64,000 bases of DNA from Planctomycetota bacterium (GTDB lineage Bacteria; Planctomycetota; B15-G4): contig JBBQUR010000010.1 in NCBI GenBank assembly GCA_038212275.1, forward strand, positions 1-64,000, in the 5' to 3' direction. Every line of letters starts with the position of its first letter. Positions within the stretch are counted from its first letter, which is position 1. This document shows, piece by piece, positions 17,316 to 43,131 of this stretch. Both the position numbers and the translations under genes were made by a program. The notes under the pieces are model-generated. The model was not told the DNA's origin and did no database searches. It was given only the letters and a program-made list of their open reading frames with translations.

Positions 17316-18159
17316 CAGGCAGCTCCTTGGCGGGTGGCGGCAGCCGACGACAAGAGTTGCGCGCCCGGGGAGGGGCTCATGCGCGCGTGTCGCGACCGTT
17401 CCGCTGATGATGACCGACGAACGCGAAGCACCACAAGGCTTGGCGGGACCCAGCCACCGAAACGACACCCCCGACTCGGTGGCAAGCTGTCACGGGATCG
17501 GGGCGCTCTCCCTGTTCTCCATGCGTGCCATGTGCTCGATGCGAGCCGTGCGCGCCGGCACTTCGTGCGTGCTTGTGCGTGGCCAGCGTCATTCGAATCG
17601 GGTGTCCTGGATCAGCAGTTTCGGCACCTTCGTTCGAGGCGCACCGAGAGGGTGAATCAGGCGCAGTCGAAAGCTGTCTCTGGCTGAGCCGCACGAATCC
17701 GCGGTCTCGACTCGTTCAGGCGATACCGACCTCCACCTCGGCGGCCTTCACCCGAGTCGAGCTCAAGCGGCGACTGCGAGGCGAACTCCACGCCAGGACG
17801 CATCGTCGGCCCGTGGCAGACGTCGGTACGGGCTGCTGCCCCGGCCGAGGCAGGCACCGCCCACGTGCGGAAACGGGCTCTCCTCAGCTATGACTGCGCA
17901 CGCTTCCGAGGTCCACCCGTTCGCGTCCCCCGCCAGAGGCCCTTGCTCAGGTTTGCCCTCGCGCGCAGAATGCACGCGGATGTCTGGTCGTTCCAGGCTG
18001 CAACTCTTAGCTACGCATGTCCGCGCATGGGGATGATTCCTCAGTGCCGAGTAAGGCGAGTCCGCCGAGGCAACCAGACTGGCCGCACACGCGATAACTA
18101 CCGTATTGTGGCTGTAAACGTAGGCCATTTAACCATCACAGTCACCCACGGAGAACTCT

Positions 18160-18528
18160 GTGCACCCCCTCTTCAAGGTCCTGATCGTTGCTGCAGTCCT
18201 GGCAATCATCGCCGTCATCTACCAGTCCCAGCAGCAGGCAGATGATCAATCCGGCTGGTCGCAGTACGGTGTCGCAGAGGCGCAGGGCTTCACGGTGGAA
18301 GCGCTTGAGGCTGCGCAGGACCAGACGCACGGCACGTCTGCCGAGCCTTGGATCGCCTATCAGCTGGCTGTGAAGCTTTATGAGTCGGGCGGGCGCGCAA
18401 ATCTCGATCGCTCCCTGCAACTCGCGAAGGAAACGCTCAGGATGTTTCCCGACCATCCCATTGCCGAGCGCCTGCGAAACCTGATCCAGATGACCGACAG
18501 CTATGCCGGAGTCGCAGACGCTGCATGA
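18160..18528 (+). CDS. Small membrane-anchored TPR-like protein (YfgM-like)
   Basis: GGAG ribosome-binding site; N-terminal transmembrane helix; helical repeats ending in FPDHPIAE. Confidence 0.6.
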   Translation: MHPLFKVLIVAAVLAIIAVIYQSQQQADDQSGWSQYGVAEAQGFTVEALEAAQDQTHGTSAEPWIAYQLAVKLYESGGRANLDRSLQLAKETLRMFPDHPIAERLRNLIQMTDSYAGVADAA

Positions 18529-18660
18529 CCGGTCAGGCGATGGTGCGCGGCTGAGCAGAGCTTGAGGGCGTGCCTTCACGCAAGTGAACTGAGTGACCGG
18601 CTGTCCGCTCGGCGGGCCCAGCGGGCGTGTGGCTCTCGGTTGCTGAAGCTTCGATGGTGA

Positions 18661-19545
18661 TCACGCCTCGGCAGCCAGAGCGCCGGCGGTCAACAAGAGG
18701 TGCAACAGACGGTCGCGATCCTTGTCCGAGTAGAACATGAATCGGACTTCGCCACGGCCACCCTTGTCGTTAATAGACACCTTAGTTCCGTATATAACGC
18801 GTAGTTGTTCTTCGTAATCTCGGATTGCGGTTCGTGATCTGGGCGAGCCGGCGACGTGCCTGCGCTGAGCCCGTTTCGAGTGTTGCTGAGCCCTTCGCTC
18901 GACTTCGCGCACGGACAGGCTGTCGCGTGACGCAGCCTCGGCCAACGCAATCATCTGCTCGCCACTGCCAGCTGCCAGCACGGCTCGAGCCTGCCCTGCG
19001 GAGAGCGCGCCGGCGTGGAGAAGTCGCTTCACGCCATCTGGCAGGTCCAGCAGGCGCAGGGCGTTTGTCACGGCGGCCCTGCTCTTGCCGACTCGCTCCG
19101 ACAGAGCCTGGTGCGTCAAGTCGGCTCGGGCGAGCAGCGCGTCATATGCTGCAGCCTCTTCCAAAGCGTTGAGGTTTTCGCGCTGGATGTTCTCGATCAA
19201 GGCCAATTCGAGTGACCGCGAACCGCTCGCCTCGATGACGAGCGCCGGAACGGTGAGCCTTCCCGCCAGCCGAGACGCCCTCAGCCGCCGCTCTCCCGCC
19301 ACGAGCTGATAAACGCCTGCAATACGCTGCACCACAATGGGTTGCAGTACTCCGTATTGTCCGATGGACTTCGCCAGACCTTCCAAAGCAGCCTCGTTGA
19401 TGATCTGTCGCGGCTGGTCCGGATTGGGATGCACATCTCCCACAGGCAACTCAAAGACTCGCTGCTGAGCCTCCAGTTCGGACGGGATCGCCGTGGTTCG
19501 GGAGATGAGGCTGTCGAGCCCCTTGCCGAGTCTGCGCTCGCTCAT
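18661..19545 (-). CDS. parB: Chromosome partitioning protein ParB/Spo0J
   Basis: LGKGLDSLI, NPDQPR, GERRLRA CTP-binding box, IENIQRENL, HTH VGKSRAAVTNALRLL; alternative GTG start at 19554. Confidence 0.95.
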   Translation of the reverse strand: MSERRLGKGLDSLISRTTAIPSELEAQQRVFELPVGDVHPNPDQPRQIINEAALEGLAKSIGQYGVLQPIVVQRIAGVYQLVAGERRLRASRLAGRLTVPALVIEASGSRSLELALIENIQRENLNALEEAAAYDALLARADLTHQALSERVGKSRAAVTNALRLLDLPDGVKRLLHAGALSAGQARAVLAAGSGEQMIALAEAASRDSLSVREVERRAQQHSKRAQRRHVAGSPRSRTAIRDYEEQLRVIYGTKVSINDKGGRGEVRFMFYSDKDRDRLLHLLLTAGALAAEA

Positions 19546-19601
19546 GCCGGTCACTCCGAGATCCAGCAGAAGCTAGTCGGCCAGACGGTGTCGATCAATC
19601 A

Positions 19602-19617
19602 TGTTTCACGTGAAACA
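19602..19617. promoter_or_regulatory. parS centromere-like site
   Basis: Perfect palindrome TGTTTCACGTGAAACA matching the chromosomal parS consensus, directly upstream of parB. Confidence 0.95.
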
Positions 19618-19651
19618 TCGGTCGACCCGGTCGCTCGCCGCATTCGCGCAG

Positions 19652-20968
19652 TCAGGTGCCGATCCGGAGATATTCCAGGCCGGGAGCCAGGGGGCGTCCG
19701 TGCTCGCCGAGGCCCGACTCGAAAAGCGCTTCCAGATCACGCAGGGCCCTCGAATCACCATGCACGCGAATCTGCTGAGGCCGAGGATGCCTTCCGCCCA
19801 GCAGAATCAGGCTCATGAGCGAGTTCGCCGAGCAACTTTCGCCGTCAAGGCTGATCTCCAGCGGCGTGCCGTAATGCCGCGCAATCTGAACGATCAGCGC
19901 CAACGGACGCGCGTGCAGCGTCACCCCCGCCGGCATGCACAGCGCAACAACCGCCCGGCTGACAAACATCTGCAGAATCTGGTGTGCAAGTGCGCTGGCC
20001 GATTCGACATAAAGATATGCATGCCTTAGACATACGTTCACAGCTATGTCCAGTATTTCCAGCTCGTTCACAACCGTCGTGATCGCCGTCCGCGCCGGGG
20101 CATGCCGGATATCACTCTCGTGCCGCTCGTAAAAATGCACGAGACCGGTCGCCATCTCGAGCAGGTGCAGCGACACGGATACGTGACCGCGCAACGAGGC
20201 GAGCCACGGGTGGTCCCGCTCGACAACAGTGTTCAACACGAAGGTGTCGTAGATGGACTGGATGCTGTGGACGGTTGACTCATACCAGCGGCACCGCTCT
20301 TCGCTCGCATATTCCGTGACGAACTCAACGAGCGACTCCTTCGGGCGCGCGAATCCGAGGTTCAGACTGCGGCTCGTCTCGAGCACCTTCAGGAAGCGCG
20401 CCCCGATCTCCGCAATGTGCTGTCGCTCGTCCACGGCTTCGGACTCGTCGAGATTCCGTGGAAGAAGGTGACGCTGCGGTAACTTCGACTTCACTTCGAC
20501 TGACGATAAAGACCATTTACAGCCGTGTTGAGAGGCCTCTAGCTCCAGGGAGCCCAACAAGCCGTGGAGGGCCTCGTTGAGCCTTCCCAACGACTCGTCA
20601 AGCTCTGTGGCGAGTGGGGCGCGATCGATCAGCACTTGGTATCGCGTGAGCCGCTGCGACAGGTGCAGGCCGATGGAGCCGACCGCTGCCAAACCGCGAG
20701 CGGATGCCACCGTCTCCCCGAAGGTCACAAAGGTTCGGTTCTGCCTCGCGCCGAAGTCATCGAGGAAGGTCTCGAAGTCGTGCGCTTCCTGGGACAGCCG
20801 AGCCATGACGGAAGGAGAGCGCAACAGCTGGGCGTCATTGCGAATGGCAACGACGCACCCTCCGAAGGCCTGCGACTCCTTGGCCAGGAGCGTCCTGAAC
20901 TCGTCCTCGCGAACGATCACGTCGCGAGAGAGCGCTGTCGAGGTATCGCGTGATTCCGTCTGCGTCAT
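19652..20968 (-). CDS. Protein with a long N-terminal helical region fused to a C-terminal HPr phosphocarrier domain
   Basis: C-terminal LHARP (His15 equivalent) and ANSLMSL (Ser46 equivalent); roughly 335 aa of unrecognised N-terminal sequence. Confidence 0.8.
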   Translation of the reverse strand: MTQTESRDTSTALSRDVIVREDEFRTLLAKESQAFGGCVVAIRNDAQLLRSPSVMARLSQEAHDFETFLDDFGARQNRTFVTFGETVASARGLAAVGSIGLHLSQRLTRYQVLIDRAPLATELDESLGRLNEALHGLLGSLELEASQHGCKWSLSSVEVKSKLPQRHLLPRNLDESEAVDERQHIAEIGARFLKVLETSRSLNLGFARPKESLVEFVTEYASEERCRWYESTVHSIQSIYDTFVLNTVVERDHPWLASLRGHVSVSLHLLEMATGLVHFYERHESDIRHAPARTAITTVVNELEILDIAVNVCLRHAYLYVESASALAHQILQMFVSRAVVALCMPAGVTLHARPLALIVQIARHYGTPLEISLDGESCSANSLMSLILLGGRHPRPQQIRVHGDSRALRDLEALFESGLGEHGRPLAPGLEYLRIGT

Positions 20969-21109
20969 GGCTCCAGCCCGAATGGCGTCAGTCTATCACG
21001 CGGGGCGCAGGCTCGAGTCCGTTCCACCCGATGGCCTCAAGGTCGCACGCATTCGCTGTCGATCTCCTGACGCGCGCACCCCGTTTCACCCCACCACACC
21101 ACGAGCGCC

Positions 21110-21958
21110 GTGGCCAGCTTCGAGGGAGAGACTCCCATTCCTTCCGACGGCACGATCGAGATCTACCTGCGCGAGATCAATCGCGTGAAACTCCTCACTG
21201 CAGCGCAGGAGAAGGAGCTCGCGGTCAGGGTGCAGGGCGGTTGCCAGGAGGCGCGGAGTCATCTCGCGCAGGCCAACTTGCGGCTCGTCGTTTCCATCGC
21301 CAAGCGCTACGTGAATCGCGGGCTCTGTCTTCTCGACCTCATCGAGGAGGGAAACGTCGGCCTCATGCGTGCCGTCGAGAAGTTCGATCCCGCGGCTAAC
21401 TGTCGCTTCTCCACGTACGCCACGTGGTGGATCAAGCAATCTATACGCCGCGCACTCACGAACACCGTCAAGACGGTGCGCATTCCTTCCTACATGATCG
21501 AACTGATGTCCCGCTGGCAGGCTGCGACAGAGAAGCTGCTGCTGAAGCACGGGCGCGAACCATCGCCTGCAGAGGTCGCCCGGGATCTCCAGATCACCGA
21601 CGAAGCCGTCATTGCCGTCAGGGGTGCGCTCCAGACTGCTTCGCGCTACACGCAGTCCTTCGCGCAGGATGACGATGCTGCGGATCTCTCCGACATCATC
21701 GTGGACCCGAATGCGGAGGAACCCAGCGACCGGCTTCTCGCATCCAGCGAGCTGCGTCGAATGCTTGCCCTGCTCGAGACACTCGAGGACAGGCAGGTGA
21801 AGATCCTGCGCATGCGCTTCGGTCTCGGCTACGATGAGTCGATGACGCTCAAGCAGATCGGCGCCGAACTCGGCCTGACGCGAGAGCGAGTCCGACAAAT
21901 CCAGAACGAGGCGCTGGCGAGGTTGCTCTCCGCGATGAACGAGAGCGAATTCGTCTGA
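21110..21958 (+). CDS. RNA polymerase sigma factor, RpoD/RpoS family, lacking region 1.1
   Basis: YLREINRVKLLT, ANLRLVVSIAKRY, DLIEEGNVGL, FSTYATWWIKQ, TRERVRQI. Confidence 0.93.
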   Translation: MASFEGETPIPSDGTIEIYLREINRVKLLTAAQEKELAVRVQGGCQEARSHLAQANLRLVVSIAKRYVNRGLCLLDLIEEGNVGLMRAVEKFDPAANCRFSTYATWWIKQSIRRALTNTVKTVRIPSYMIELMSRWQAATEKLLLKHGREPSPAEVARDLQITDEAVIAVRGALQTASRYTQSFAQDDDAADLSDIIVDPNAEEPSDRLLASSELRRMLALLETLEDRQVKILRMRFGLGYDESMTLKQIGAELGLTRERVRQIQNEALARLLSAMNESEFV

Positions 21959-21964
21959 CAATCA

Positions 21965-23203
21965 GTGCGGGTCAAACAAGCTCTCGAAGACAATGGCCCG
22001 GCGTTTCCGCTGAGCGGCCTGTACGCGCATGTGCCGTTCTGCCGTGAACGCTGCACCTACTGTTCCTTTACGACGATTGCGGATGATCGCGCACTTCATG
22101 CACCGCTCGTGCACGCATTGCTCGAGGAGTGCGCGCGCCACTCGCGTGCCGGAGCGTTTCGAGATGCGCCCCTGAGATCCCTGTATCTTGGTGGGGGCAC
22201 TCCAGGTCTGCTGGCGCCGGACGATCTGGCAATGCTTGTCGACGGCCTGCGCATTCACGCACCTCTTGCGTCCGACGCCGAGTTCACTCTCGAGGTGAAT
22301 CCTGCGAACGTTTCGACGGAGGCGCTCAAGTGCTGGAACGATCTCGGCATCAACAGGCTCTCCATCGGCGTTCAGACCTTTCGCGACGACGTCCTCAGCC
22401 GCCTCGGGCGACGGCACGATGCGACGATGGCACGGCGGGCTCTGAAGCTCGCCCATGAGCATTGGCCGCACACGTGGTCCGCGGATCTGCTGGTCGGCTG
22501 GGTGCGACAGCAACACGACGATCTCGACCGTGACATCGTCGAGCTGATGAGTCACGCGCCACCGCACGTCTCGGTGTACGGACTCACCATCGAGCCGAAG
22601 ACGCCACTCGCGCAACTCGCCGCCAGTGGCCACGAGGTCACCGCACCGACCGCACTGCTCCCCGCCTTCGACGCCGTCTGGTCGGCCGCGCTCTGCCAGG
22701 CAGGGCTTGAGCGCTACGAAGTTTCGAACTTCGCGCGCGACGGTCATCGGTCGCGGCACAATCAGCTGTATTGGCGAAACCTCTCGTATCTGGGGCTGGG
22801 TCCGGGAGCGTCGAGTTCCGTGCATCCCTGGCGCTGGACAAACCGGACGGACCTGGCCGGCTACCTGAGAGCCACGGCCAATGGGCGAGGTGTTCGTGCC
22901 GCAGCGGAGCGAGTGGGGCCGCATGCCCGGCTGCTGGAGACCGTGTCGTGCGGGTTGCGCACGCAGGAAGGACTGGAGTCCGCCGAACTCGATCGGCGCT
23001 TCGGGCCCGCCTGGCGCGACACTCTTGCGGGCGGATGGCAGCGGCTGTGCGAACACGACATCCTCCGGGAGAGTCGCGGTTGGATCACGGTGCGCCCGGC
23101 AGAGGTCGTCCGGTTGGACGCCATTCTGAGAGAGCTCATCTCACTCTCAACGTCTCGTGGTGCTTCAACCCCAGGGCACCGCAGTCTTGATGGCTGCCTA
23201 TGA
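21965..23203 (+). CDS. hemW: Radical SAM heme chaperone HemW (HemN-like)
   Basis: YAHVPFCRERCTYCSF, GGGTP, RLSIGVQ, YEVSNFA, HNQLYW. Confidence 0.88.
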   Translation: MRVKQALEDNGPAFPLSGLYAHVPFCRERCTYCSFTTIADDRALHAPLVHALLEECARHSRAGAFRDAPLRSLYLGGGTPGLLAPDDLAMLVDGLRIHAPLASDAEFTLEVNPANVSTEALKCWNDLGINRLSIGVQTFRDDVLSRLGRRHDATMARRALKLAHEHWPHTWSADLLVGWVRQQHDDLDRDIVELMSHAPPHVSVYGLTIEPKTPLAQLAASGHEVTAPTALLPAFDAVWSAALCQAGLERYEVSNFARDGHRSRHNQLYWRNLSYLGLGPGASSSVHPWRWTNRTDLAGYLRATANGRGVRAAAERVGPHARLLETVSCGLRTQEGLESAELDRRFGPAWRDTLAGGWQRLCEHDILRESRGWITVRPAEVVRLDAILRELISLSTSRGASTPGHRSLDGCL

Positions 23204-23769
23204 TACTTATCATAGATAATTACGATTCTTTTACCTTCAATCTGTACCAATTAGTTGCTGATCTCGCAGGTTCCTCGGCCCGCCCCGTCGTTCTGCGGAA
23301 CGATGCCGTGGACGTGCTCGAGGTTCGTCGACTCGAGCCGACTCACATCGTGCTGTCGCCGGGACCTGGCCACCCAGCCGGCTCCCGAGTGTCGCTGGAC
23401 ATCCTGCGCGACCTGAGCTCGGTGCCGGTTCTCGGCATCTGTCTGGGCCATCAAGCCCTCGCCCTGGCACACGGAGCTCGCGTGACACGATCCGCACATC
23501 CGAGCCACGGCAGGACAACAAGCGTCAGCCACGACGGATCGAGACTCTTCGACGGTCAGCCTCCGCGCTTCGAGGCGGCGCTGTATCACTCGCTTGCGGT
23601 GGAGCCAGCCTCGCTGCCTCCGGAACTCATCGCGAGCGCCTGGTCCGACCGCGGCGATATCATGGCCTTGCGTCATGCAGACCGCCTGCATTTCGGCGTC
23701 CAGTTCCATCCGGAATCATTCCTCACGCCCACGGGCCGGCACATGCTGCAGGCCTTTCTGGAACTCTGA
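23200..23769 (+). CDS. Anthranilate/aminodeoxychorismate synthase component II (TrpG/PabA)
   Basis: IDNYDSFTFNL, SPGPG, GICLGHQ, YHSL, QFHPES. Confidence 0.93.
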   Translation: MILIIDNYDSFTFNLYQLVADLAGSSARPVVLRNDAVDVLEVRRLEPTHIVLSPGPGHPAGSRVSLDILRDLSSVPVLGICLGHQALALAHGARVTRSAHPSHGRTTSVSHDGSRLFDGQPPRFEAALYHSLAVEPASLPPELIASAWSDRGDIMALRHADRLHFGVQFHPESFLTPTGRHMLQAFLEL

Positions 23770-24692
23770 TGTCGCTACCGTTCGCCGACCGACTCGCGAG
23801 TGCCGTACGCAGCAAGCACTCGGCTCTGGTTGTGGGGCTCGACCCGCAGTTCGCGAAGCTGCCCGTCGAGATTCGCGAGCGCGCGACTGCGCATCACGCT
23901 GACCAGCGCGAGGCTGCCGCGGCAGCCATCAAGGAGTTTGACGCCGCCGTCATCGAAGAGGTTGCGCCATTTGCCGCTGCCGTGAAGCCGCAGATCGCCT
24001 ACTACGAACGGTGGGGGCCGCCCGGACTTGCGGCGTATGAACATGCCATCGAAAAGGCTCATGCAGCTGGCCTTCTGGTCATCGGTGACATCAAGCGAGG
24101 GGACATCGGCCCGACGGCCGAGGCTTACGCCTCGGCCCATCTCGGCTCGGGAACCACGGCCGAGAGGGACCAATTCGCTGACGCCATCACCGTGAATCCG
24201 TACTTCGGCACCGACGGCCTCCAACCCTTCCTGAACGCCGTGCGCGAGAAAGATGCCGGTCTCTTCGTGCTCGTGAGGACCTCCAACGCCTCCGCGGGAG
24301 AGCTTCAGGACTTGCAGGCGCTCGGCCAACCTGTTCATGAGCATGTCGCCGCACGGGTCGTCGCCTGGGGCCATGAACTGACGGGCAGCTGCGGCTACAG
24401 CAGCGTTGGCGCCGTGGTGGGGGCCACGGCCCCGCGCGAACTCGCAAGGTTGCGCGAGTGCATGCCCAGGACGTGGTTTCTGATCCCAGGGGTCGGTGCC
24501 CAGGGAGGCACTGCCGCAGACGTCGCACCAGCCTTCGACTCGGACGGGCTCGGTGCCCTCGTGAACTCCTCTCGGGGAATCATCTTCGCCTACGGTTCGC
24601 CTGCGGCGTCGGAGTGGCGACGCAGCATCCGCGAGGCCGCACGTCGCTTGCGGGACGAACTCCGCACGGCCGCGCCGCAAGCAGCCTCTTGA
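23769..24692 (+). CDS. pyrF: Orotidine-5'-phosphate decarboxylase
   Basis: VGLDP, KPQIAYY, DIKRGDIG, VRTSN, GAVVGAT, PGVGAQG, NSSRGI. Confidence 0.95.
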   Translation: MSLPFADRLASAVRSKHSALVVGLDPQFAKLPVEIRERATAHHADQREAAAAAIKEFDAAVIEEVAPFAAAVKPQIAYYERWGPPGLAAYEHAIEKAHAAGLLVIGDIKRGDIGPTAEAYASAHLGSGTTAERDQFADAITVNPYFGTDGLQPFLNAVREKDAGLFVLVRTSNASAGELQDLQALGQPVHEHVAARVVAWGHELTGSCGYSSVGAVVGATAPRELARLRECMPRTWFLIPGVGAQGGTAADVAPAFDSDGLGALVNSSRGIIFAYGSPAASEWRRSIREAARRLRDELRTAAPQAAS

Positions 24693-29729: not shown

Positions 29730-29757
29730 TTGACAGCCGTGGAAAAAGCCCGATAGT
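29730..29757 (+). promoter_or_regulatory. Putative dnaA promoter (TTGACA-N16-GATAGT) with a degenerate DnaA box in the spacer
   Basis: Perfect -35 TTGACA at 29730; TTTTCCACG on the minus strand at 29738-29746. Confidence 0.5.
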
Positions 29758-29943
29758 ACCGCGGCCTTTCCTGCTGTCGGGGGCGCACGCGAGTCGACCG
29801 GATGCCGGGCCTTCCCCGGACGGTTCCGCACGCGCGTGCTCCGCGGGCACCAGCTGGAGGGGGCATCAAGGGATCTGCGCGCCGCGACGGCGCCGCGCGT
29901 TGGATCCGCGTTTTCTCCAGCCAGCGAAGGGAACCTCAGCCGG

Positions 29944-31488
29944 ATGAGCACGGCCGAAACATCGGTGCCGGATCGCACGACATGGCACGACGCGATCCGC
30001 AAGCTCGTGAGCAAGCAGCAGTACGAGCTGTGGTTCTCCTCGATGCAGCCGGTTGCCGCGAACGACGGCGGACTGCACTTCAGCGTGGCGAACGCCTTCA
30101 TCCGCGATTGGCTGTCGACCTACTACACCGAGGTGCTGCGGACCGCAGCACGTCAGTGCGCGGGGAGCGAGTTGCCGGTGCACCTCGTCCTGGCGGATCG
30201 CCTCGTTCCGGGGTCTGTTGCGGCCGATGGCGGCGCAACGACCCAGGGCGAGACGCAGGCCGGCCAGAGCGGCGCCACGAAGCAGACCGGCTGGAGGTCA
30301 GGGCCGACGAGCGCGGATGACGGGGCCACCGGTCACGACGAGCAGGCGTTCATCGGCGTCGGCGCGGACGGCGCCCGACAGCCGGGAACGTCGCCGCACG
30401 CTGGCGGCTCGACGTCCGACGGCATGGCGAACAGCGCAAGCCTGGCCTTCTTCACGCACAACTCGGACGTCGTCCTGAACCCGAAGTACGTCTTCGAGAA
30501 TTTCGTCGTCGGCCCGAGCAATCGCTTCGCGGCTGCCGCAGCGCGTGCCGTGGCGGATGCGCCCTCGGCTTCCTACAACCCGCTCTTCGTGCATGGCCGT
30601 GTCGGACTCGGAAAGACCCATCTGCTTCAGGCCATCTGCCATCAGGTGCTGGCTTCCAACCGCGAAGCCCGCGTGCTCTACCTGTCCAGCGAAACCTTCG
30701 TGAACCAGTTCATCGGAGCCATCGAAGGCCGCGACCTCGACCGATTCCGCACGCGCTACCGCAATGTGGACATGCTGCTCGTCGACGACATCCACCTGCT
30801 GGCCAACAAGGACCGCACGCAGGACGAGTTTTTCCACACCTTCAATGCTCTCTACAACGCCGGCCACCAGATCGTCCTCAGCAGCGACGGGCCCGCGAGT
30901 GGCATCCCGACCCTGAAGGAGCGCCTCATCAGCCGCTTCAAGTGGGGCATGGAGGTCGAACTGGCCGCTCCCGGCTACGAGACGCGGCTCGCCATCGTCA
31001 GGCGCAAGGCCCGTGACCGCGGCGTGGACGTCCCCGAGGACGTGCTCACCCTCATCACCGAGTCCATCGACACGAACATCCGCGAGCTCGAGGGCGCCAT
31101 CACGAAGGTGCTCGGTTACGCCCAGCTCATCCACCGGGACATCACGGTAGACCTTGCGCGCCAGGTGCTCGGCCTTTCGTCGAGCGGGCCGCTGCGACCC
31201 GTCACGGGCATCGAGCGCGTCGTCGAGGTCGTGTGCCGCCATTTCGGCGTGCGGCTGGCCGACCTGCAGGGTCGCAAGCGCACGCAATCCATCGCCCTGC
31301 CGAGGCAGACCGCGATGTACCTGGCGCGCAAGCTCACGACCCTCTCGCTCGAGGAGATCGGCGGGCATTTCGGCGGCCGCGATCACTCCACCGTGCTCTA
31401 CGCGGTCGATCGCACCGGGGAACGCATTGCCCAGGACCGGTCGTTCGCCCAGCTCGTCACCGACATGGAAATTCGTGCACAGCGCTGA
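29944..31488 (+). CDS. dnaA: Chromosomal replication initiator DnaA
   Basis: LNPKYVFENFV, YNPLF, GLGKTHL, QDEFFHTFN, RELEGA, FGGRDHSTV. Confidence 0.98.
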   Translation: MSTAETSVPDRTTWHDAIRKLVSKQQYELWFSSMQPVAANDGGLHFSVANAFIRDWLSTYYTEVLRTAARQCAGSELPVHLVLADRLVPGSVAADGGATTQGETQAGQSGATKQTGWRSGPTSADDGATGHDEQAFIGVGADGARQPGTSPHAGGSTSDGMANSASLAFFTHNSDVVLNPKYVFENFVVGPSNRFAAAAARAVADAPSASYNPLFVHGRVGLGKTHLLQAICHQVLASNREARVLYLSSETFVNQFIGAIEGRDLDRFRTRYRNVDMLLVDDIHLLANKDRTQDEFFHTFNALYNAGHQIVLSSDGPASGIPTLKERLISRFKWGMEVELAAPGYETRLAIVRRKARDRGVDVPEDVLTLITESIDTNIRELEGAITKVLGYAQLIHRDITVDLARQVLGLSSSGPLRPVTGIERVVEVVCRHFGVRLADLQGRKRTQSIALPRQTAMYLARKLTTLSLEEIGGHFGGRDHSTVLYAVDRTGERIAQDRSFAQLVTDMEIRAQR

Positions 31489-31832
31489 ATTCGTACACGT
31501 GAGCCGGCACGGCGCGAACGCGTTCCACCAGCGGACAGTTCGAGTTCCGCGTCCGCATTGTCGGCAACTCGCCGATCGCTCCACACCGATGGCGACCGAC
31601 GTCCACAAGCCGACCCGCCTCGTTGTCGAAAGCCAGCCAAACCCGCTTCGCTCTTCAACAGCCTCCGGCTCGGTGCCCCGGGACTGCGGATCGTTCTCCC
31701 GCCTGCTTCAGGGCTTGCAAACCTCTTCCCGTCAGGCACTTGCCGAGGACACGGAAGAGGTTTTCCCCAATCCGGCCATGCTTCAGAAGATGAAGTCTTT
31801 TCATTAGAATTGAAGGCTCTCAGGAAGATGCC
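31489..31832. other. Candidate oriC (dnaA-dnaN spacer); the spacer upstream of dnaA (29455-29943) may be part of it
   Basis: Position between dnaA and dnaN; degenerate boxes CGCTCCACA 31577, ACGTCCACA 31599, TTTTCCCCA 31761; AT-rich tract at about 31786-31814; no perfect TTATCCACA. Confidence 0.5.
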
Positions 31833-32933
31833 ATGAAACTCGACACACCCCGTGAACCGTTCCTCCAGCACCTCCAGCTCGCGGCATCGTTCTGTCCCGC
31901 GCGCAGTCCAAGGCCGATCGTGCAGGACGTGATGCTCGAGGTCCTGGACGGCGAGGTCGTGATGGCCGCCACCGATGCCGAGGTCTCCGTGCGCACCCGC
32001 TACCGGGTTGACGGCATCACGGGATCGGGACGGACGGCGCTGCCCGCGCTCACGCTGCTTTCCGCCGTGAGGGCGTTGTCCAGCGAGTCGCTGCACATCA
32101 CCGACAGCGGCGTGCTGCACGAGATCTCCGGCGGCAAGTCGATCTTCAAGCTGCACGGCGACGACCCCGAACTCTTCCCGAGCATCCCGTCGGTGGACAT
32201 GAGCCGTGCAGTGCGCGTGCCTGTCGCGGCGTTCGTCGATCTCTGCAACCGGACGATGTTCGCCGCGGCACGCGACATGGGACGTTACGCGTTCAACGGC
32301 GTGCTGCTCGAGATCGATCCGCAGGAGATCACGCTGGTGGCCACGGACGGACGCAGGTTGGCCATGGCGCGCATGGAATGCGCGACGGGCGTCACCGAGC
32401 GTCGGTCGAGCATCGTGCCCGTGAAGGGCCTCATACAGCTTCAGCGCGCGGCCGCCGACGGTGGCGAGGAACTCGCCATCGATCTTCGGGAGAACCAGGT
32501 CGCGTTCCGGCTCGGCGGCGCGGAGATCATCGCGCAACTCGTCGAGGGCGAATTCCCCGATTTCCGGGCCGTCCTGCCGAAGGACAAGGACATGCCGAGG
32601 CAGGTCGAGCTCGATCGCCAGGAACTGGCGCAAGCCGTCCACCGCGCATCGCTCACGGCCGGCGATCAGGGCCGGGCCGTCGAGTTGACCTTCGACAAGG
32701 GACTGCTCTGCGTGACGTCCCGCCAGGAAGGCCTCGGTGAAGCCCGCAGCGAAATGGGAGTGGCCTACGATGGCGACGCCGTCGGAATCCGCTTCAATCC
32801 CGAGTTCCTGGGCGAGTACCTCAAGGCTCTCGAAGACGCCACGGTGACGTTCCGCTTCAAGGACAGGATTTCAGCGGGGGAGTTCACCTCGTCCGGCAAC
32901 GCACGCTATGTCCTGATGCCGATCACGTCGTGA
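31833..32933 (+). CDS. dnaN: DNA polymerase III subunit beta (sliding clamp)
   Basis: ATDAEVS, VATDGRRLA, GEFPDF, C-terminal VLMPI. Confidence 0.97.
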   Translation: MKLDTPREPFLQHLQLAASFCPARSPRPIVQDVMLEVLDGEVVMAATDAEVSVRTRYRVDGITGSGRTALPALTLLSAVRALSSESLHITDSGVLHEISGGKSIFKLHGDDPELFPSIPSVDMSRAVRVPVAAFVDLCNRTMFAAARDMGRYAFNGVLLEIDPQEITLVATDGRRLAMARMECATGVTERRSSIVPVKGLIQLQRAAADGGEELAIDLRENQVAFRLGGAEIIAQLVEGEFPDFRAVLPKDKDMPRQVELDRQELAQAVHRASLTAGDQGRAVELTFDKGLLCVTSRQEGLGEARSEMGVAYDGDAVGIRFNPEFLGEYLKALEDATVTFRFKDRISAGEFTSSGNARYVLMPITS

Positions 32934-33018
32934 ACCTGAGCGGATCCACGCGCCTGGGCGGCGTGCCGGCAGGACACGAGAGTCCGGTCACGAGCCTGCC
33001 GGCCTTCACGGAAGACGC

Positions 33019-35720
<2,702 letters not shown>

Positions 35721-38747: not shown

Positions 38748-41612
38748 CTACTCCTTGACCCTGATCGTGGAGCGCACGATGCGGGCCTCCTGCGAACGAG
38801 GATGCACTTCCACCTGCGCGGCGTCGACCACGTTGCCTTCCCAGATGAGCCGGCAATGGCCGGTGAGCAGCGCGACATCCCGACCGACGTCCCACGCGAG
38901 TTCGTCGCCGCGCACTTCGATGTCGCCAAGGTGGCACACGACGTCGCCGGTGGCCTGCAGGCTGCGCAGTTCGTCGTGTTCGTCCGTGACGGCGCGCAGC
39001 AGTTCAGTCGCGGCCACGCTGCGCAGCTCGCTGCCCTCGCCCTGCTGCACCGAGGCGTGACCGAGCAGCTCCACCGTGCGCGTGATGCGGTCCGCCTCGA
39101 GCCGGTCACCCGACAGGTGCAGCGGGGCACGCGAGCCGGCCGTGAAGAGCGTGCCGACGGCGCTGCCTTCCGCGCTCAGGTGCTGCGGCGTACCGTCGGG
39201 CGCGGCGCGCACGGCGAGGCGCTGTGTGGCCGCCAGCGCCACGTGCTCCGCCGCCGTCCGGCGCTCGAAGGAACTGGGCCCCTCCAGCACGGCGGTTCCC
39301 GCGCGGCCATCGAGCGCCAGCAACTCGGTGTGAAAGCGGCCCTGCTGATCATTGCCGCCTTCGACGCCGTCGCGCAGCGTGCCGAAGCCGTCGCGTAGCG
39401 CGTCGTCCGCACCCGGCGGAACGGTCCAGTCGAGGCTGCCGCGCGAGGTCAGCACGAAAGCCTCCGCCGCGGGGGTGCGGGCCGCGAAGCTGATGCGCAC
39501 GTCGCTCCCCAGGTGCAGCACGCCGGTGCCGTCGTCCCAGCGCATGCCGGTGCCCGAGCCCGACATGCCCGCGCGCGACCACGCCACGGCCTCGCTGCTG
39601 GTGACAATGGGGGACGAGTCCGCGTTCTCCACGCGCACCTCGGTGCCGTCCACGAGCAGCGGGCCGTCGCGCCCGGCGAGGCTTGCGTGCGACTTGCCGC
39701 GCAGCGTCATCGTGTGCGACGGCCCGTCCACGAGCAGCGTCTCGGTGTCGAGCGTCGAGCCATCGCTCATGCGGCCGGTGACGCGACCGCGCAGCTCGCC
39801 GTGCCCGTCCTGAGCGCTGGTGGCGTGCGGCGGGGCGACCCACGTCAGTCCGCCCGCTCCGTTCAGCTCCGCCGTGAGCTGGTTCTCGGGATCCGTGAAG
39901 CGGATCTGCGCGTCGCGGGTCAGGTCGAGCTGGCCGGTCGTCTCGTCGTAGACCATGCCCGTGCCCACGATGGTCACGCCGTCGCGCGACCACGACACCT
40001 CGTCGGGCGAGGTGACCATGGCACCGGTGCGTTGCATCGACGCCGCCACCAGGCGCGCGGGCAGCACGTCGATCGGCCCGGAGAGCAGCACGACGTCGCC
40101 CTCGGCGGAGACGAGCGCAAGGCGCTGGTGCTCGTCGGCGCCCAGCGTGATGCGCTGCGCCGAGGCCTCGTTGCGCCGGTCATCGGCGACACGCCGGAAC
40201 TGCGCCGAGCCCTCCAGCCGGAACGCGCGCGCGGCGCCGTCGAAGAAGAGCATGTCCGTTGCGAAGCTCGTGCCGTCGGGCAGCGTGCCCGACACCTTGC
40301 CGCGCAGCTCGCCCTGCGCCGCCGCGATCGGGTCCGTCGCCTCCGGCGGGATGGTCCACGTCATGCCACCGGGCGCGAAGACGCGCAGCCCGGCGAGCGG
40401 CTGCTCGCTGTTCTCATCCACGGAGATCTGCGCTTCGCGGTCGTACACGAGCCGACCGACGGCCGTGTCCCAGTCGAGCTGCGTGCCCGTGGCGACGACG
40501 CCCTCCTGGCTCCACGTGACCTCGCCCGGTGCGGTGACCCGCGAGTCCTGCATGCGGATGTGCTCCGTGACCATCCACGCCGGCAGCACCGCGAACGGCG
40601 CGGACACCAGCCGCACGGAACCGTCCGCCTGCGCGATCGCGAAGCGCCCGCTCTCGTCCGCCTCGAGCGCGATGTGCTGCGCCGTGAGCTGCAGCTTGCG
40701 GCCCTTGTCCTCGCGCTCGTAGGCGGCGCGCTCCACCAGCCGGATCGTGCCGGTGCGGCCGTCCACGAGCAGGCTCTGCGCGGCGACGCGCGTGCCGTCC
40801 GACGCGACGCCCGTGACCGGCCCGCGCAACTCGCCCCAGCTCTGGGTGCGCGGATCCTTGCTGCCGGGCGGCAGGTTCCACGTGAGGCCGTCGGGCGCGT
40901 TCAACTCCAGGCCGCGCCGCTCGGGGCTCTCGACGAGCGTGATCGTCGCGTTGCTCGAGAAGTCCAGCCGGCCCGTGTCGCCGTCCCAGGTCATGTCTTC
41001 GCCGACGAGGGACATGTCGTCGCGCGACCAGGTGACGTGGCCCGGCGCCTTCACCAGGGCGCCGTCCACGTCGACGCGCTCCGCGGTCACGTGCGCGGCG
41101 TGGCCGTCGGCCATGAGCATGTCGCCCTGCACGTCGCCGATGAGGGAGAAGCGCTGCGCGTTCATGTGCGAGAGGTCGATACGCACTGCGCCGCCGACGG
41201 AGTCGCCGGTCTCGAAGCGCGCGCTGTTCGAGGAGAGCGTGCCGTTCTCGGCGCCCGTGATGCGATCGAGCAGCCTCACGAACGGGCTCTCGGCGACGAA
41301 CGCGCCCGACGCGTCGGGCCTGCCGGACTTGATCTTCACGCGATAGGCGGGCACTTCGCGCATGCTGCCGTCGGCGCCCTCCACCGGCTGCACGACGTCG
41401 AACTCGACCTCGCCCGGAAACATGACCTGCGTCGCGCGGTCATCCTTCTCGTCCTGGATGCGGAGACTCGGGGCGTCCTTGCCGGCGGCATCGAGCTCGC
41501 CGATGTGCGCGCGCTTGCGGCCGGAAAGAGGGTCGGCAAGCAGATACACCACGGCAAGACCCGCCGTCACCATGCCGGCGAACAGCAGCGCGCGACGAGC
41601 GGCCGGTTTCAC
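38748..41612 (-). CDS. Giant membrane-anchored LptC/LptA-like protein with four tandem beta-jellyroll-type repeats
   Basis: N-terminal transmembrane helix; four copies of V.WS.......G..(M/L).(W/Y)D...G.L, W..PP and G.LR; lies between kdsC and lptD. Confidence 0.7.
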   Translation of the reverse strand: MKPAARRALLFAGMVTAGLAVVYLLADPLSGRKRAHIGELDAAGKDAPSLRIQDEKDDRATQVMFPGEVEFDVVQPVEGADGSMREVPAYRVKIKSGRPDASGAFVAESPFVRLLDRITGAENGTLSSNSARFETGDSVGGAVRIDLSHMNAQRFSLIGDVQGDMLMADGHAAHVTAERVDVDGALVKAPGHVTWSRDDMSLVGEDMTWDGDTGRLDFSSNATITLVESPERRGLELNAPDGLTWNLPPGSKDPRTQSWGELRGPVTGVASDGTRVAAQSLLVDGRTGTIRLVERAAYEREDKGRKLQLTAQHIALEADESGRFAIAQADGSVRLVSAPFAVLPAWMVTEHIRMQDSRVTAPGEVTWSQEGVVATGTQLDWDTAVGRLVYDREAQISVDENSEQPLAGLRVFAPGGMTWTIPPEATDPIAAAQGELRGKVSGTLPDGTSFATDMLFFDGAARAFRLEGSAQFRRVADDRRNEASAQRITLGADEHQRLALVSAEGDVVLLSGPIDVLPARLVAASMQRTGAMVTSPDEVSWSRDGVTIVGTGMVYDETTGQLDLTRDAQIRFTDPENQLTAELNGAGGLTWVAPPHATSAQDGHGELRGRVTGRMSDGSTLDTETLLVDGPSHTMTLRGKSHASLAGRDGPLLVDGTEVRVENADSSPIVTSSEAVAWSRAGMSGSGTGMRWDDGTGVLHLGSDVRISFAARTPAAEAFVLTSRGSLDWTVPPGADDALRDGFGTLRDGVEGGNDQQGRFHTELLALDGRAGTAVLEGPSSFERRTAAEHVALAATQRLAVRAAPDGTPQHLSAEGSAVGTLFTAGSRAPLHLSGDRLEADRITRTVELLGHASVQQGEGSELRSVAATELLRAVTDEHDELRSLQATGDVVCHLGDIEVRGDELAWDVGRDVALLTGHCRLIWEGNVVDAAQVEVHPRSQEARIVRSTIRVKE

Positions 41613-42130
41613 CGGATGGCTTCCAGGAGCTTGTCCCAGCGGCCGGTGCCGCGCAGCACGTGCTCGACGAGGTCGCGCACGGCGCCGCGGCCGCCGCGCG
41701 ACGGCACGACGAGATCCACGCGGCTGGCCACGTCGCGCGAGCAGTCGGCAGGCGCCGCGGAGAAGCCCGCGCGCTCGAGAATGCGAAGGTCCGGCACGTC
41801 GTCGCCCATGACGGCGACCTGATTCGCCGCGAGGCCGAAGTGCAAGAGGATGTCGTCGAAGGCCGCGGACTTGTCGCGCGCGTTCTCCCAGATGCGCTCG
41901 ATGCGCAGCTCGCGGGCGCGGCGCTGCACCGCGGCGCCGCCGCGCCCCGTGAGGAAGGTGGTGTGGAAGCCCGCGTCGCGCCAGAGCGCGAGGCCCGCGC
42001 CGTCGCGCGTGTGGAAGGCTTTCAGCTCCTCGTTGCCCGCGCCGAGGATCACCGTGCCGTCCGTGAGCACGCCATCCACGTCGAGCACGAGCAGGCGCAG
42101 CGCGTTCAGGTCCGGAGGTCGGGTGCTCAC
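41609..42130 (-). CDS. kdsC: 3-deoxy-D-manno-octulosonate 8-phosphate phosphatase
   Basis: LDVDGVLTDG, RDG, GDDVPDL, GGRGAVRD. Confidence 0.93.
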   Translation of the reverse strand: MSTRPPDLNALRLLVLDVDGVLTDGTVILGAGNEELKAFHTRDGAGLALWRDAGFHTTFLTGRGGAAVQRRARELRIERIWENARDKSAAFDDILLHFGLAANQVAVMGDDVPDLRILERAGFSAAPADCSRDVASRVDLVVPSRGGRGAVRDLVEHVLRGTGRWDKLLEAIR

Positions 42131-43131
42131 GGCATCATCCGCAGCTCGAGCAGGTCCTGCACGTCGAGCAGGCCGACAGCGCGACCGTCGTCATCCACCA
42201 CGGGCAGCTGGTCGATCTTGCGCTCGCGCAGAATGCGTCGCGCCTCGCTCACGAGCTGTTCCGGGCGCACGCTGGCGGGCTTCTCGGTCATGACCTCGTC
42301 GATCGGCGCCGAGAGCATGCCGAAGTCGTTCTTCGCGCGTGCCGCGAGCAGGTTGCGGCGCAGGTCGCCGTCGGTGTAGATCCCGGCGAAACGGCCGTCC
42401 GTCGCCACGACGATGACCGCGCCCGGCCGCCCCGGCGTCGAGGTCATGCGTTCCACGGCCTGCGCGAGCGAGCTGCCGGCCGAGATCGTCGGCAGCATCT
42501 CCCCGCGGCGCATGACCTCTTCCACGCGCAGCAGCGAGCGGCCGAGGTCCCCGCCGGGGTGGAAGCGCGCGAACTCCTCGTGCGAAAAGCGGCGTTCGGA
42601 GAGCACGGCCATCGCGAGGGCGTCGCCGAGGGCCAGCATGACGGTGGTGGAGGTGGTGGGCGCGAGTCCCAGCGGGCAGGCCTCGGTGACGCGGCCGTAG
42701 TCGAGCACCACGTCCGCATGCCGCCCGAGCGGCGAATCCGCGTCGGCCGTGATGGCCACCAGCTTCGCGCCGATGTCCTTGAGCGGGCCGACGAGGCGCA
42801 GCAGCTCCGCGGTGGTGCCGCTGTTGGAGAGCGCCAGCACCACGTCGTGGCGCGTGACGCGTCCGAGGTCGCCGTGCAGCGCCTCGGCCGGGTGCAGGTA
42901 GTCGCTCGGCGTGCCGGTGCTGGCAAGCGTCGCGCCGATCTTGCGCGCGATGATCCCGGCCTTGCCGATGCCCGACATGACCACGCGCCCCTCGCACCCC
43001 GCGAGCAGCCGGACCGCCCGTATGAAGTCCGCGTCCAGCGTGGCGCCGAGCAGCGAAAGGGCCGCCGTCTCGGCGTCGAGCAGCGCGCGGGCGCCGGCGA
43101 GGATGTCCTGGTCTGAAGCCACTCTGAGCAC
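42127..43131 (-). CDS. kdsD: Arabinose-5-phosphate isomerase (KpsF/GutQ)
   Basis: SIS domain GIGKAG, ASTGTP, HPAEALHGDLG, PTTST, FHPGG, followed by a CBS pair. Confidence 0.95.
   Translation of the reverse strand: MLRVASDQDILAGARALLDAETAALSLLGATLDADFIRAVRLLAGCEGRVVMSGIGKAGIIARKIGATLASTGTPSDYLHPAEALHGDLGRVTRHDVVLALSNSGTTAELLRLVGPLKDIGAKLVAITADADSPLGRHADVVLDYGRVTEACPLGLAPTTSTTVMLALGDALAMAVLSERRFSHEEFARFHPGGDLGRSLLRVEEVMRRGEMLPTISAGSSLAQAVERMTSTPGRPGAVIVVATDGRFAGIYTDGDLRRNLLAARAKNDFGMLSAPIDEVMTEKPASVRPEQLVSEARRILRERKIDQLPVVDDDGRAVGLLDVQDLLELRMMP

Follow-up and report, generated by a model that had tools for sequence, protein, structure and literature searches.

In the lipopolysaccharide (LPS) transport (Lpt) system, LptC is a protein of about 190 amino acids (aa) with a single N-terminal anchor and one beta-jellyroll, and LptA, which is secreted as a protein of its own, enters the periplasmic bridge in no fixed number of copies. 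Both the number of LptA copies per bridge and the response of the bridge to the width of the periplasm are open questions in Escherichia coli. According to the parts of Mandela et al. (2022; PMC8824477) drawn on here, LPS-transport bridges appear susceptible to disruption in a periplasm widened by Lpp+21. The route taken by LPS to the outer membrane of planctomycetes is a real question, and in the parts of Speth et al. (2012; PMC3422733) considered here only LptD and BamA were used as markers, the other outer-membrane biogenesis proteins, such as LptA and LptC, being too poorly conserved for BLAST. The 64,000-nt stretch analysed here (the window; positions 1 to 64,000 of contig JBBQUR010000010.1, assembly GCA_038212275.1), from a Planctomycetota bacterium, encodes between kdsC and lptD a 954-aa protein, hereafter X. 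This protein probably contains LptC and LptA in one chain, forming the periplasmic part of the Lpt bridge as a single polypeptide of the type LptC-(LptA-like)x5. It represents a variant of the known Lpt system and no novel type of machinery, and other genomes encode it as well.

The open reading frame (ORF) of X (38748..41612 on the reverse strand, stop codon included) begins with GTG and is the third gene of the cluster kdsD-kdsC-X-lptD, in which 4-nt overlaps join the end of kdsD to the start of kdsC and the kdsC stop to the start of X. The likely start of lptD is a GTG at 38743, 4 nt past the stop of X, with the Shine-Dalgarno sequence AAGGAG just upstream. The gene order and close spacing described in the first-pass annotation are therefore those given by the ORF coordinates, TIGR00393, TIGR01670 and the lptD start site together, and the slot of X behind kdsC and immediately ahead of lptD has the same neighbours in the loci of relatives.

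Three further features that had been read from the translation also hold, namely one N-terminal membrane helix, four clear repeats with periods of about 172, 174 and 137 aa, and W..PP and G(E/T)LR motifs behind each repeat motif. The single N-terminal hydrophobic stretch has its hydropathy peak at aa 8–27, coinciding with a helix at aa 4–25 in the AlphaFold2 (AF2) model. Within this anchor G18, L25 and D27 are invariant in 10 homologues and F11, M14 and P28 nearly so, and the pattern of invariant residues in the alignment hints at a specific contact with a partner. The four repeat motifs quoted in the annotation begin at aa 187, 359, 533 and 670 (periods of 172, 174 and 137 aa), and the W..PP and G(E/T)LR motifs are found after each of them. 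As compared by blastp after cutting X into six segments (15 pairs), all six pairs among the four repeat segments match with 32–40% identity (E 8e-32 to 2e-15), which is far beyond chance, and the other nine pairs give no match at E <= 1. Self-blastp of the uncut protein gives no off-diagonal matches; these appear once X is segmented. Together with the profile and structure matches below, the repeats give about six modules in X, comprising an N-terminal module (aa 49–149), the four repeats and a C-terminal LptA-like module (Table 1).

Sequence profiles relate these modules to LptC and LptA. In the scan for LptC and OstA domains, X scores above the cut-offs of Pfam LptC PF06835 (31 bits vs 21; X aa 532–569, model positions 134–171), NCBIfam LptC TIGR04409 (39.6 bits vs 38; X aa 531–571, model positions 139–179) and Pfam LptD_N PF03968 (28.6 bits vs 20.4 on the whole of X, where no single stretch passes alone), and below that of the LptA equivalog TIGR03002. 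A generic LptA profile, built from 33 stand-alone LptA-like proteins of 140–235 aa found among the matches of the X-family profile, matches X with 3.8e-35 at four places (aa 181–226, 272–391, 453–578 and 810–952), the last of which is the strongest. Searched against the sequences of PDB, the X-family profile returns LptA chains only, and these weakly (E 0.08–0.8, X aa 828–937). The Pfam scan of X at E <= 1 yields LptC, LptD_N and a weak Vault_2 match only, with no MORN family.

Models of X were predicted by AF2 for the whole chain (10-row alignment) and for a sub-model of aa 322–632 (27 rows; residue 1 corresponds to X aa 322). The whole-chain model has a mean predicted local distance difference test score (pLDDT) of 85.4 and consists of one helix (aa 4–25) and then, between aa 49 and 947, of strands with little else. 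The sub-model reaches a pLDDT of 91.9 and a predicted template modelling score (pTM) of 0.86, and neighbouring repeats are therefore predicted to stand in a fixed relation to each other. Structures were compared by VIA-align, the sub-model being searched against 48,161 PDB chains without a Foldseek pre-filter. Its top matches are the LptD N-domain 5iv9_A (Z 13.9 over 146 aa), LptH 4uu4_A (Z 13.7, root mean square deviation (rmsd) 2.2, 123/143 aa), LptC 6mit_C (Z 13.6) and 6mjp_C (Z 13.3) and LptA 2r19_A (Z 12.5), while a second LptA match, 7qs6 (Z 10.6), lies on the next repeat (model 195–309). In the whole model, Lpt matches tile aa 257–405, 405–517, 516–647 and 809–953. Over both models, the OstA-type beta-jellyroll fold is supported by LptH 4uu4 (Z 13.2–13.7, rmsd 2.0–2.2, 123/143 residues) and by LptA 2r1a_A (Z 13.1) and 2r19_A (Z 10.8–12.5). 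Whole-chain Foldseek searches placed LptD chains on top (E 2e-9), but as global alignments with template modelling scores of 0.15–0.2, which are unusable for domains; those of the sub-model were set aside likewise.

Separate lptA and lptC genes, and lptB, lptF and lptG, were sought in the assembly to which the window belongs (40 contigs with 4.65 Mb in total, 91% complete), which contains matches to PF03968 and PF06835 at this locus only. Among 38,109 ORFs from all six frames, four profiles (one each for X aa 1–150, for the repeat and for the C-terminal module, and the generic LptA profile) identify no LptA- or LptC-like frame besides X, the first of them being family-specific and finding X alone in the genome. 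Two marginal extra matches were seen: one on contig C24 (E 0.0099), rejected as an LptA and identified as a UPF0102 protein, and one (E 0.017) which is an 86-aa frame on C25. The genome encodes lptF and lptG side by side on contig C15 (2921-5022, reverse strand; 4.8e-54 and 2.5e-41, 184 and 142 bits) and lptB on C1 (158765-159475, reverse strand; 6.1e-101, 337.6 bits vs cut-off 240). The neighbours of lptB, named from their translations alone, are signal-peptidase-like and response-regulator-like genes, with no lptC or lptA beside it. Two of the checks proposed with the first-pass annotation thus gave lptB and lptFG elsewhere in the genome, and no stand-alone lptC or lptA by Pfam scans and four profiles in the 91%-complete assembly.

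The Lpt-like fold, the profile similarity and the detection of no other lptA or lptC support the proposal of the first-pass annotation that X is made of LptC/LptA-type beta modules and replaces lptC-lptA. Several observations weigh against reading X as LptC and LptA in one chain. The curated LptC matches span only the last ~40 model positions and lie outside the N-terminal module, in repeat 3; the LptA equivalog TIGR03002 reaches 21.2 bits against a cut-off of 71.7 (X aa 827–944, 2e-4); and lptB lies outside the kdsD-kdsC-X-lptD cluster. The whole-chain pTM is 0.57, so the overall shape of X is uncertain, and MORN-repeat proteins match the models comparably in both searches (Z 12.1–12.8 over 194–208 residues), so that by Z-score alone the fold is not Lpt-specific. 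Structure prediction, another check proposed with the first-pass annotation, gave confident, almost all-beta, Lpt-like modules. Finally, as the genome is only 91% complete and 1,368 bases lay outside the search, the assembly could lack a stand-alone lptA that the organism has.

The last point bears on an alternative which we consider improbable, namely that X is just a very large LptC, extending from its anchor at LptB2FG, and that a separate and very divergent LptA-like protein takes the last step to LptD. Such an LptA may lie in the unassembled 9% of the genome, the Lpt proteins of this clade are very divergent (LptD itself is barely detected by Pfam, PF04453 E 0.05), and the modules of X score near the cut-offs. 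However, no other part of X is as LptA-like as the C-terminal module (8e-27; Z 10.8 to 2r19_A), which is located where LptA would sit, the generic LptA profile finds nothing besides X at E < 0.01 among the 38,109 frames, and lptD follows 4 nt after X here and directly after X in relatives.

It is similarly unlikely that X is no LPS conduit at all, but an OstA-like or MORN-like sheet that keeps the two membranes a set distance apart, as a tether or spacer, or that carries lipoproteins or some lipid other than LPS. The models are matched over ~200 residues with Z 12-13 by single-sheet proteins of the MORN type, and a connection of Lpt-like machines with lipoprotein export has been made for other phyla, in the parts of two reports considered here (PMC12065857; bioRxiv 10.64898/2026.10.02.756314). 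In contrast, the tight coupling to kdsD and kdsC, which belong to the synthesis of Kdo (3-deoxy-D-manno-octulosonate), and to lptD points to LPS, the sequence profiles tie X to LptC and LptA with no Pfam MORN match at E <= 1, and no other LptC or LptA candidate was found in the assembly, though lptB, lptF, lptG and lptD are all present. We read the MORN resemblance as that of one long continuous sheet running across the module borders of an Lpt array, not as homology.

Relatives of X retain its size and layout. A word-indexed search identified nine full-length homologues (906–975 aa, 34–71% identity), one of them from a Planctomycetota metagenome-assembled genome (MAG) and three already labelled LptA by the Joint Genome Institute (JGI). 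The X-family profile gives 181 matches at E <= 0.001 against 1.84 billion representatives, 38 of which reach E <= 1e-30; stand-alone LptA-sized proteins and LptC+LptD_N fusions of 670–815 aa are also among the 181. The hidden Markov model (HMM) of the repeat finds four repeat positions in all 32 proteins of 866–975 aa among P0001–P0039. Three shorter forms are complete, with neither end lost: P0023 and P0024 (614 and 598 aa), without profile positions ~277–605, are missing two repeats and keep two, and P0038 (797 aa), short by about one repeat, keeps three. When the 40 repeat units of 10 proteins are placed in a tree, they sort cleanly into positional clades for repeat 1 and for repeat 2 (supports 0.95 and 0.97) and imperfectly for repeats 3 and 4. 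As repeats 1 and 2 group by position and not by genome, the duplications behind them predate the divergence of the sampled proteins.

The search for related loci in genome contigs gave one, in an uncultured Phycisphaerales MAG (45% identity). The class was sampled by 42 genomes, all from one order and comprising the window's family and four other families. Every other genome of the window's family (15/15) encodes X, and 14 related loci keep the order kdsD-kdsC-X-lptD as far as their flanks extend, with kdsC upstream in 13 and lptD downstream in 13, both misses being cut at a contig end. The long X profile detects nothing at E <= 1e-5 in the 26 genomes of the other four families. All three loci fetched from these families (G032, G035 and G037) contain an ORF of 1023–1127 aa directly before lptD, with weak LptD_N or LptC matches, and kdsD upstream. 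A kdsC-like ORF is directly upstream in two of them, and in the third (L041) the kdsC similarity lies in a long frame overlapping kdsD. That X is an artefact, with several genes read as one or a repeat-collapsed or repeat-expanded assembly, is very improbable: with 1128 codons from stop to stop the frame exceeds the gene, and high-GC DNA yields long spurious frames, but 32 homologues of 866–975 aa from independent assemblies agree in their four repeat positions and in both termini, the duplications are old as judged from the positional grouping of repeats 1 and 2 (0.95, 0.97), and confusion of the repeats by an assembler is unlikely because they are only 32–40% identical.

Fused forms are widespread in the phylum. 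A Pfam LptC scan of 301 Planctomycetota genomes, which misses the X family because of its divergence, gave 71 matches in 70 genomes. Sixty-two of these lie in stop-to-stop frames of at least 500 codons, 32 in frames of more than 800 and nine in frames of less than 450. A protein may be shorter than its frame, which sets a maximum, and contig ends truncate some of the frames. Five cases (L046 to L050) were inspected. At locus L046, kdsD-kdsC precedes a protein of 664 aa that matches LptC in full (PF06835 5.7e-19) and PF03968 at 4.9e-20, and the 1103-aa protein of locus L047 combines LptC (5.4e-21) with four or more LptA-like stretches. At locus L048 (G108:C33, 5776-10893, forward strand), kdsD-kdsC is followed by a 1705-aa ORF with one hydrophobic helix at its N-terminus, a match to LptC at aa 109–248 and an LptD-like part at aa 1038–1357 (24% identity over 325 aa). 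This ORF contains no internal signal-peptide-like stretch, and its third-position G+C is 0.83–0.97 throughout, a continuous coding signature. It appears to be an anchor-to-barrel fusion of the bridge with LptD, although an assembly or frameshift error may instead account for it. The 1555-aa frame of L049 was not counted as a fused bridge, as the same frame contains a TatA match. A search with the fusion protein P0098 returned five homologues. A useful contrast is provided by L050 (G074:C55, 5522-5998, reverse strand), where a canonical LptC is encoded in a 178-codon frame right after kdsD-kdsC, in a 2.1-Mb genome with 35% G+C at the locus.

X therefore belongs to a class of proteins of differing length that is found widely across the phylum, and its presentation in the first-pass annotation as a singular case does not stand, given its presence in 15/15 family genomes and the 62/71 LptC matches in frames of at least 500 codons. 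Our literature search found no paper on fused or multi-module LptC-LptA proteins in Planctomycetota. The lpt genes have been surveyed across phyla by Léonard et al. (2022; PMC8871954), and the parts of that survey considered here do not mention fused forms.

In E. coli the LptC helix sits with LptFG. With fold, gene order, repeats, gene content and conservation in the family as the observed ground, we infer for X that its N-terminal helix would likewise sit with the inner-membrane LptB2FG extractor, docking to LptFG, and that the ~six LptC/LptA-type modules behind it would form one continuous slide, the chain being extended in the cell. LPS would travel along X, and the LptA-like C-terminal end would dock to the N-terminal domain of LptD, handing over the LPS. 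Co-folding of LptD aa 80–280 (13-row alignment) with X aa 800–954 (10-row alignment) scored 0.00 in both runs, which counts neither for nor against binding.

The LPS bridge of this planctomycete is probably a single chain of fixed length. One LptA-like module spans roughly 4–5 nm; if this module size applies, six modules would extend over some 20–27 nm, compared with ~8–10 nm for LptC and one LptA. The first-pass annotation had claimed a bridge several times the usual length, of which the module count stands (~six vs two for LptC and one LptA, or about three times), whereas the physical length is only an estimate from this general module size. Such a length would be too short for the large invaginated spaces of planctomycetes, and plausibly fits zones where the membranes run parallel.

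Forms of different length are known from the 178-codon LptC of L050 through the 664 aa of L046, the two- and three-repeat relatives of X, the four-repeat X (954 aa) and the 1103 aa of L047 to the apparent 1705-aa fusion of L048. It is conceivable, though rather doubtful, that the length of the LPS bridge is genome-encoded in Planctomycetota and evolves by gain and loss of modules. As for the repeat number acting as a ruler, length differs between lineages, yet the number of repeats is nearly constant within the X family. Should the number of modules follow the local spacing of the two membranes, these proteins would be molecular rulers, or tethers making fixed contact sites in a variable, enlarged periplasm. 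The fused forms provide a comparative series for asking whether bridge length follows envelope geometry. They would also be, if the single-chain reading is true, natural bridges of fixed stoichiometry, helpful for structural work on the whole Lpt machine, since a single chain with a fixed number of modules is a defined object for cryo-electron microscopy and in-vivo crosslinking.

The coordinates of the cluster and of the modules of X are listed in Table 1.

Table 1. Genes of the kdsD-kdsC-X-lptD cluster and modules of X, in window coordinates
Feature	Position	Strand	Basis
kdsD (arabinose-5-phosphate isomerase, SIS + 2 CBS domains)	42127..43131	-	TIGR00393 3.3e-89; PF01380 2.4e-24; PF00571 3.4e-22; first cluster gene
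kdsC (Kdo-8-phosphate phosphatase)	41609..42130	-	TIGR01670 5.6e-40, 136.8 bits vs cut-off 106.95
X, membrane-anchored multi-module LptC/LptA-like protein, 954 aa	38748..41612	-	Profiles, repeats, AF2 models, homologues
N-terminal transmembrane helix, LptC-like anchor (X aa 4-25), K/R residues before it	41538..41603	-	AF2 helix 4-25
N-terminal beta module (X aa 49-149)	41166..41468	-	Strands from aa 49, pLDDT 60-88; no significant blastp similarity to repeats
Repeat 1 (aa 150-321)	40650..41165	-	Repeat HMM 2.2e-65; blastp to repeats 2-4 E 8e-32 to 6e-17; LptC 6mit_C at model 257-405, Z 9.1
Repeat 2 (aa 322-495)	40128..40649	-	Repeat HMM 1.1e-66; sub-model residues 1-181 vs 5iv9_A Z 13.9, 4uu4_A Z 13.7, 6mit_C Z 13.6
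Repeat 3, short (aa 496-632)	39717..40127	-	Carries Pfam/TIGRFAM LptC match; LptH 4uu4 Z 13.2, rmsd 2.0, 123 aa at 516-647; LptA 2r1a_A Z 13.1
Repeat 4 (aa 633-800)	39213..39716	-	Repeat HMM 2.1e-51; blastp to repeats 1-3 E 6e-17 to 2e-15
C-terminal LptA-like module (aa 801-954)	38751..39212	-	Generic LptA profile 8e-27 at aa 810-952; TIGR03002 2e-4; PDB LptA chains E 0.08-0.12 at 828-937; 2r19_A Z 10.8 at 827-953
lptD, divergent outer-membrane LPS translocon, 823 aa	36272..38743	-	Start site, NF002997, orthologue profile vs PDB

The lptD product of the window has a signal-peptide-like start, an Ala/Pro-rich linker, an N-domain and a barrel. It is identified by a match to NF002997 (9.4e-8) and by a 13-row profile of LptD orthologues, which finds 8h1r_A (4.2e-8) and 7omm_A (1.2e-6) in PDB, and is barely recognised by Pfam PF04453 (E 0.05). 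In the LptD proteins of the X clade, an Ala/Pro-rich stretch follows the signal peptide (aa ~41–80), and the alignment contains a variable low-complexity insert in the N-domain (aa ~135–165). The genes dnaA, dnaN and gyrB stand in a row at 29734-35720 (forward strand), converging on lptD, and the cluster is thus near the likely chromosomal replication origin. The G+C content of the window is ~70%; it falls to 0.61–0.65 at 18001-24000, vs ~0.66–0.75 across most of the window.

Among known proteins with a comparable sheet, MORN-repeat proteins, which are eukaryotic cytoskeletal or membrane-contact proteins, share with X a long continuous antiparallel beta sheet (MORN1, PDB 6T4R; Z 12.1–12.8), whereas X has no Pfam MORN match at E <= 1. 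E. coli LptC (PF06835/TIGR04409; PDB 3MY2 and 6MIT chain C) resembles X in its single N-terminal helix followed by an OstA-type beta module and in the location of its gene directly after kdsC, and X passes the curated LptC models (31 vs 21 and 39.6 vs 38 bits) with structural Z of 9–13.6; X is, however, about five times longer, with five further modules in the same 954-aa chain. E. coli LptA and Pseudomonas aeruginosa LptH (PF03968/TIGR03002; PDB 2R19, 2R1A and 4UU4) superpose on the repeats, which carry W..PP and GELRG motifs, and on the C-terminal module (Z 10.6–13.7, rmsd 2.0–3.2, 105–123 residues). Unlike X, in which the modules are covalently joined in one anchored chain of 954 aa, these are soluble proteins with their own gene and a cleaved signal peptide. 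A further comparison is offered by the shorter LptC-LptA fusions of other Planctomycetota and of metagenomes (664–837 aa, for which no paper was found; e.g. L046, P0054, P0056, P0067, P0070 and P0098), which share with X the anchor, an LptC module, several LptD_N/LptA modules and, where inspected, the slot behind kdsD-kdsC. These fusions are strongly recognised by the curated models and contain ~3–4 LptA modules, whereas X is built of four family-specific repeats and is much more divergent.

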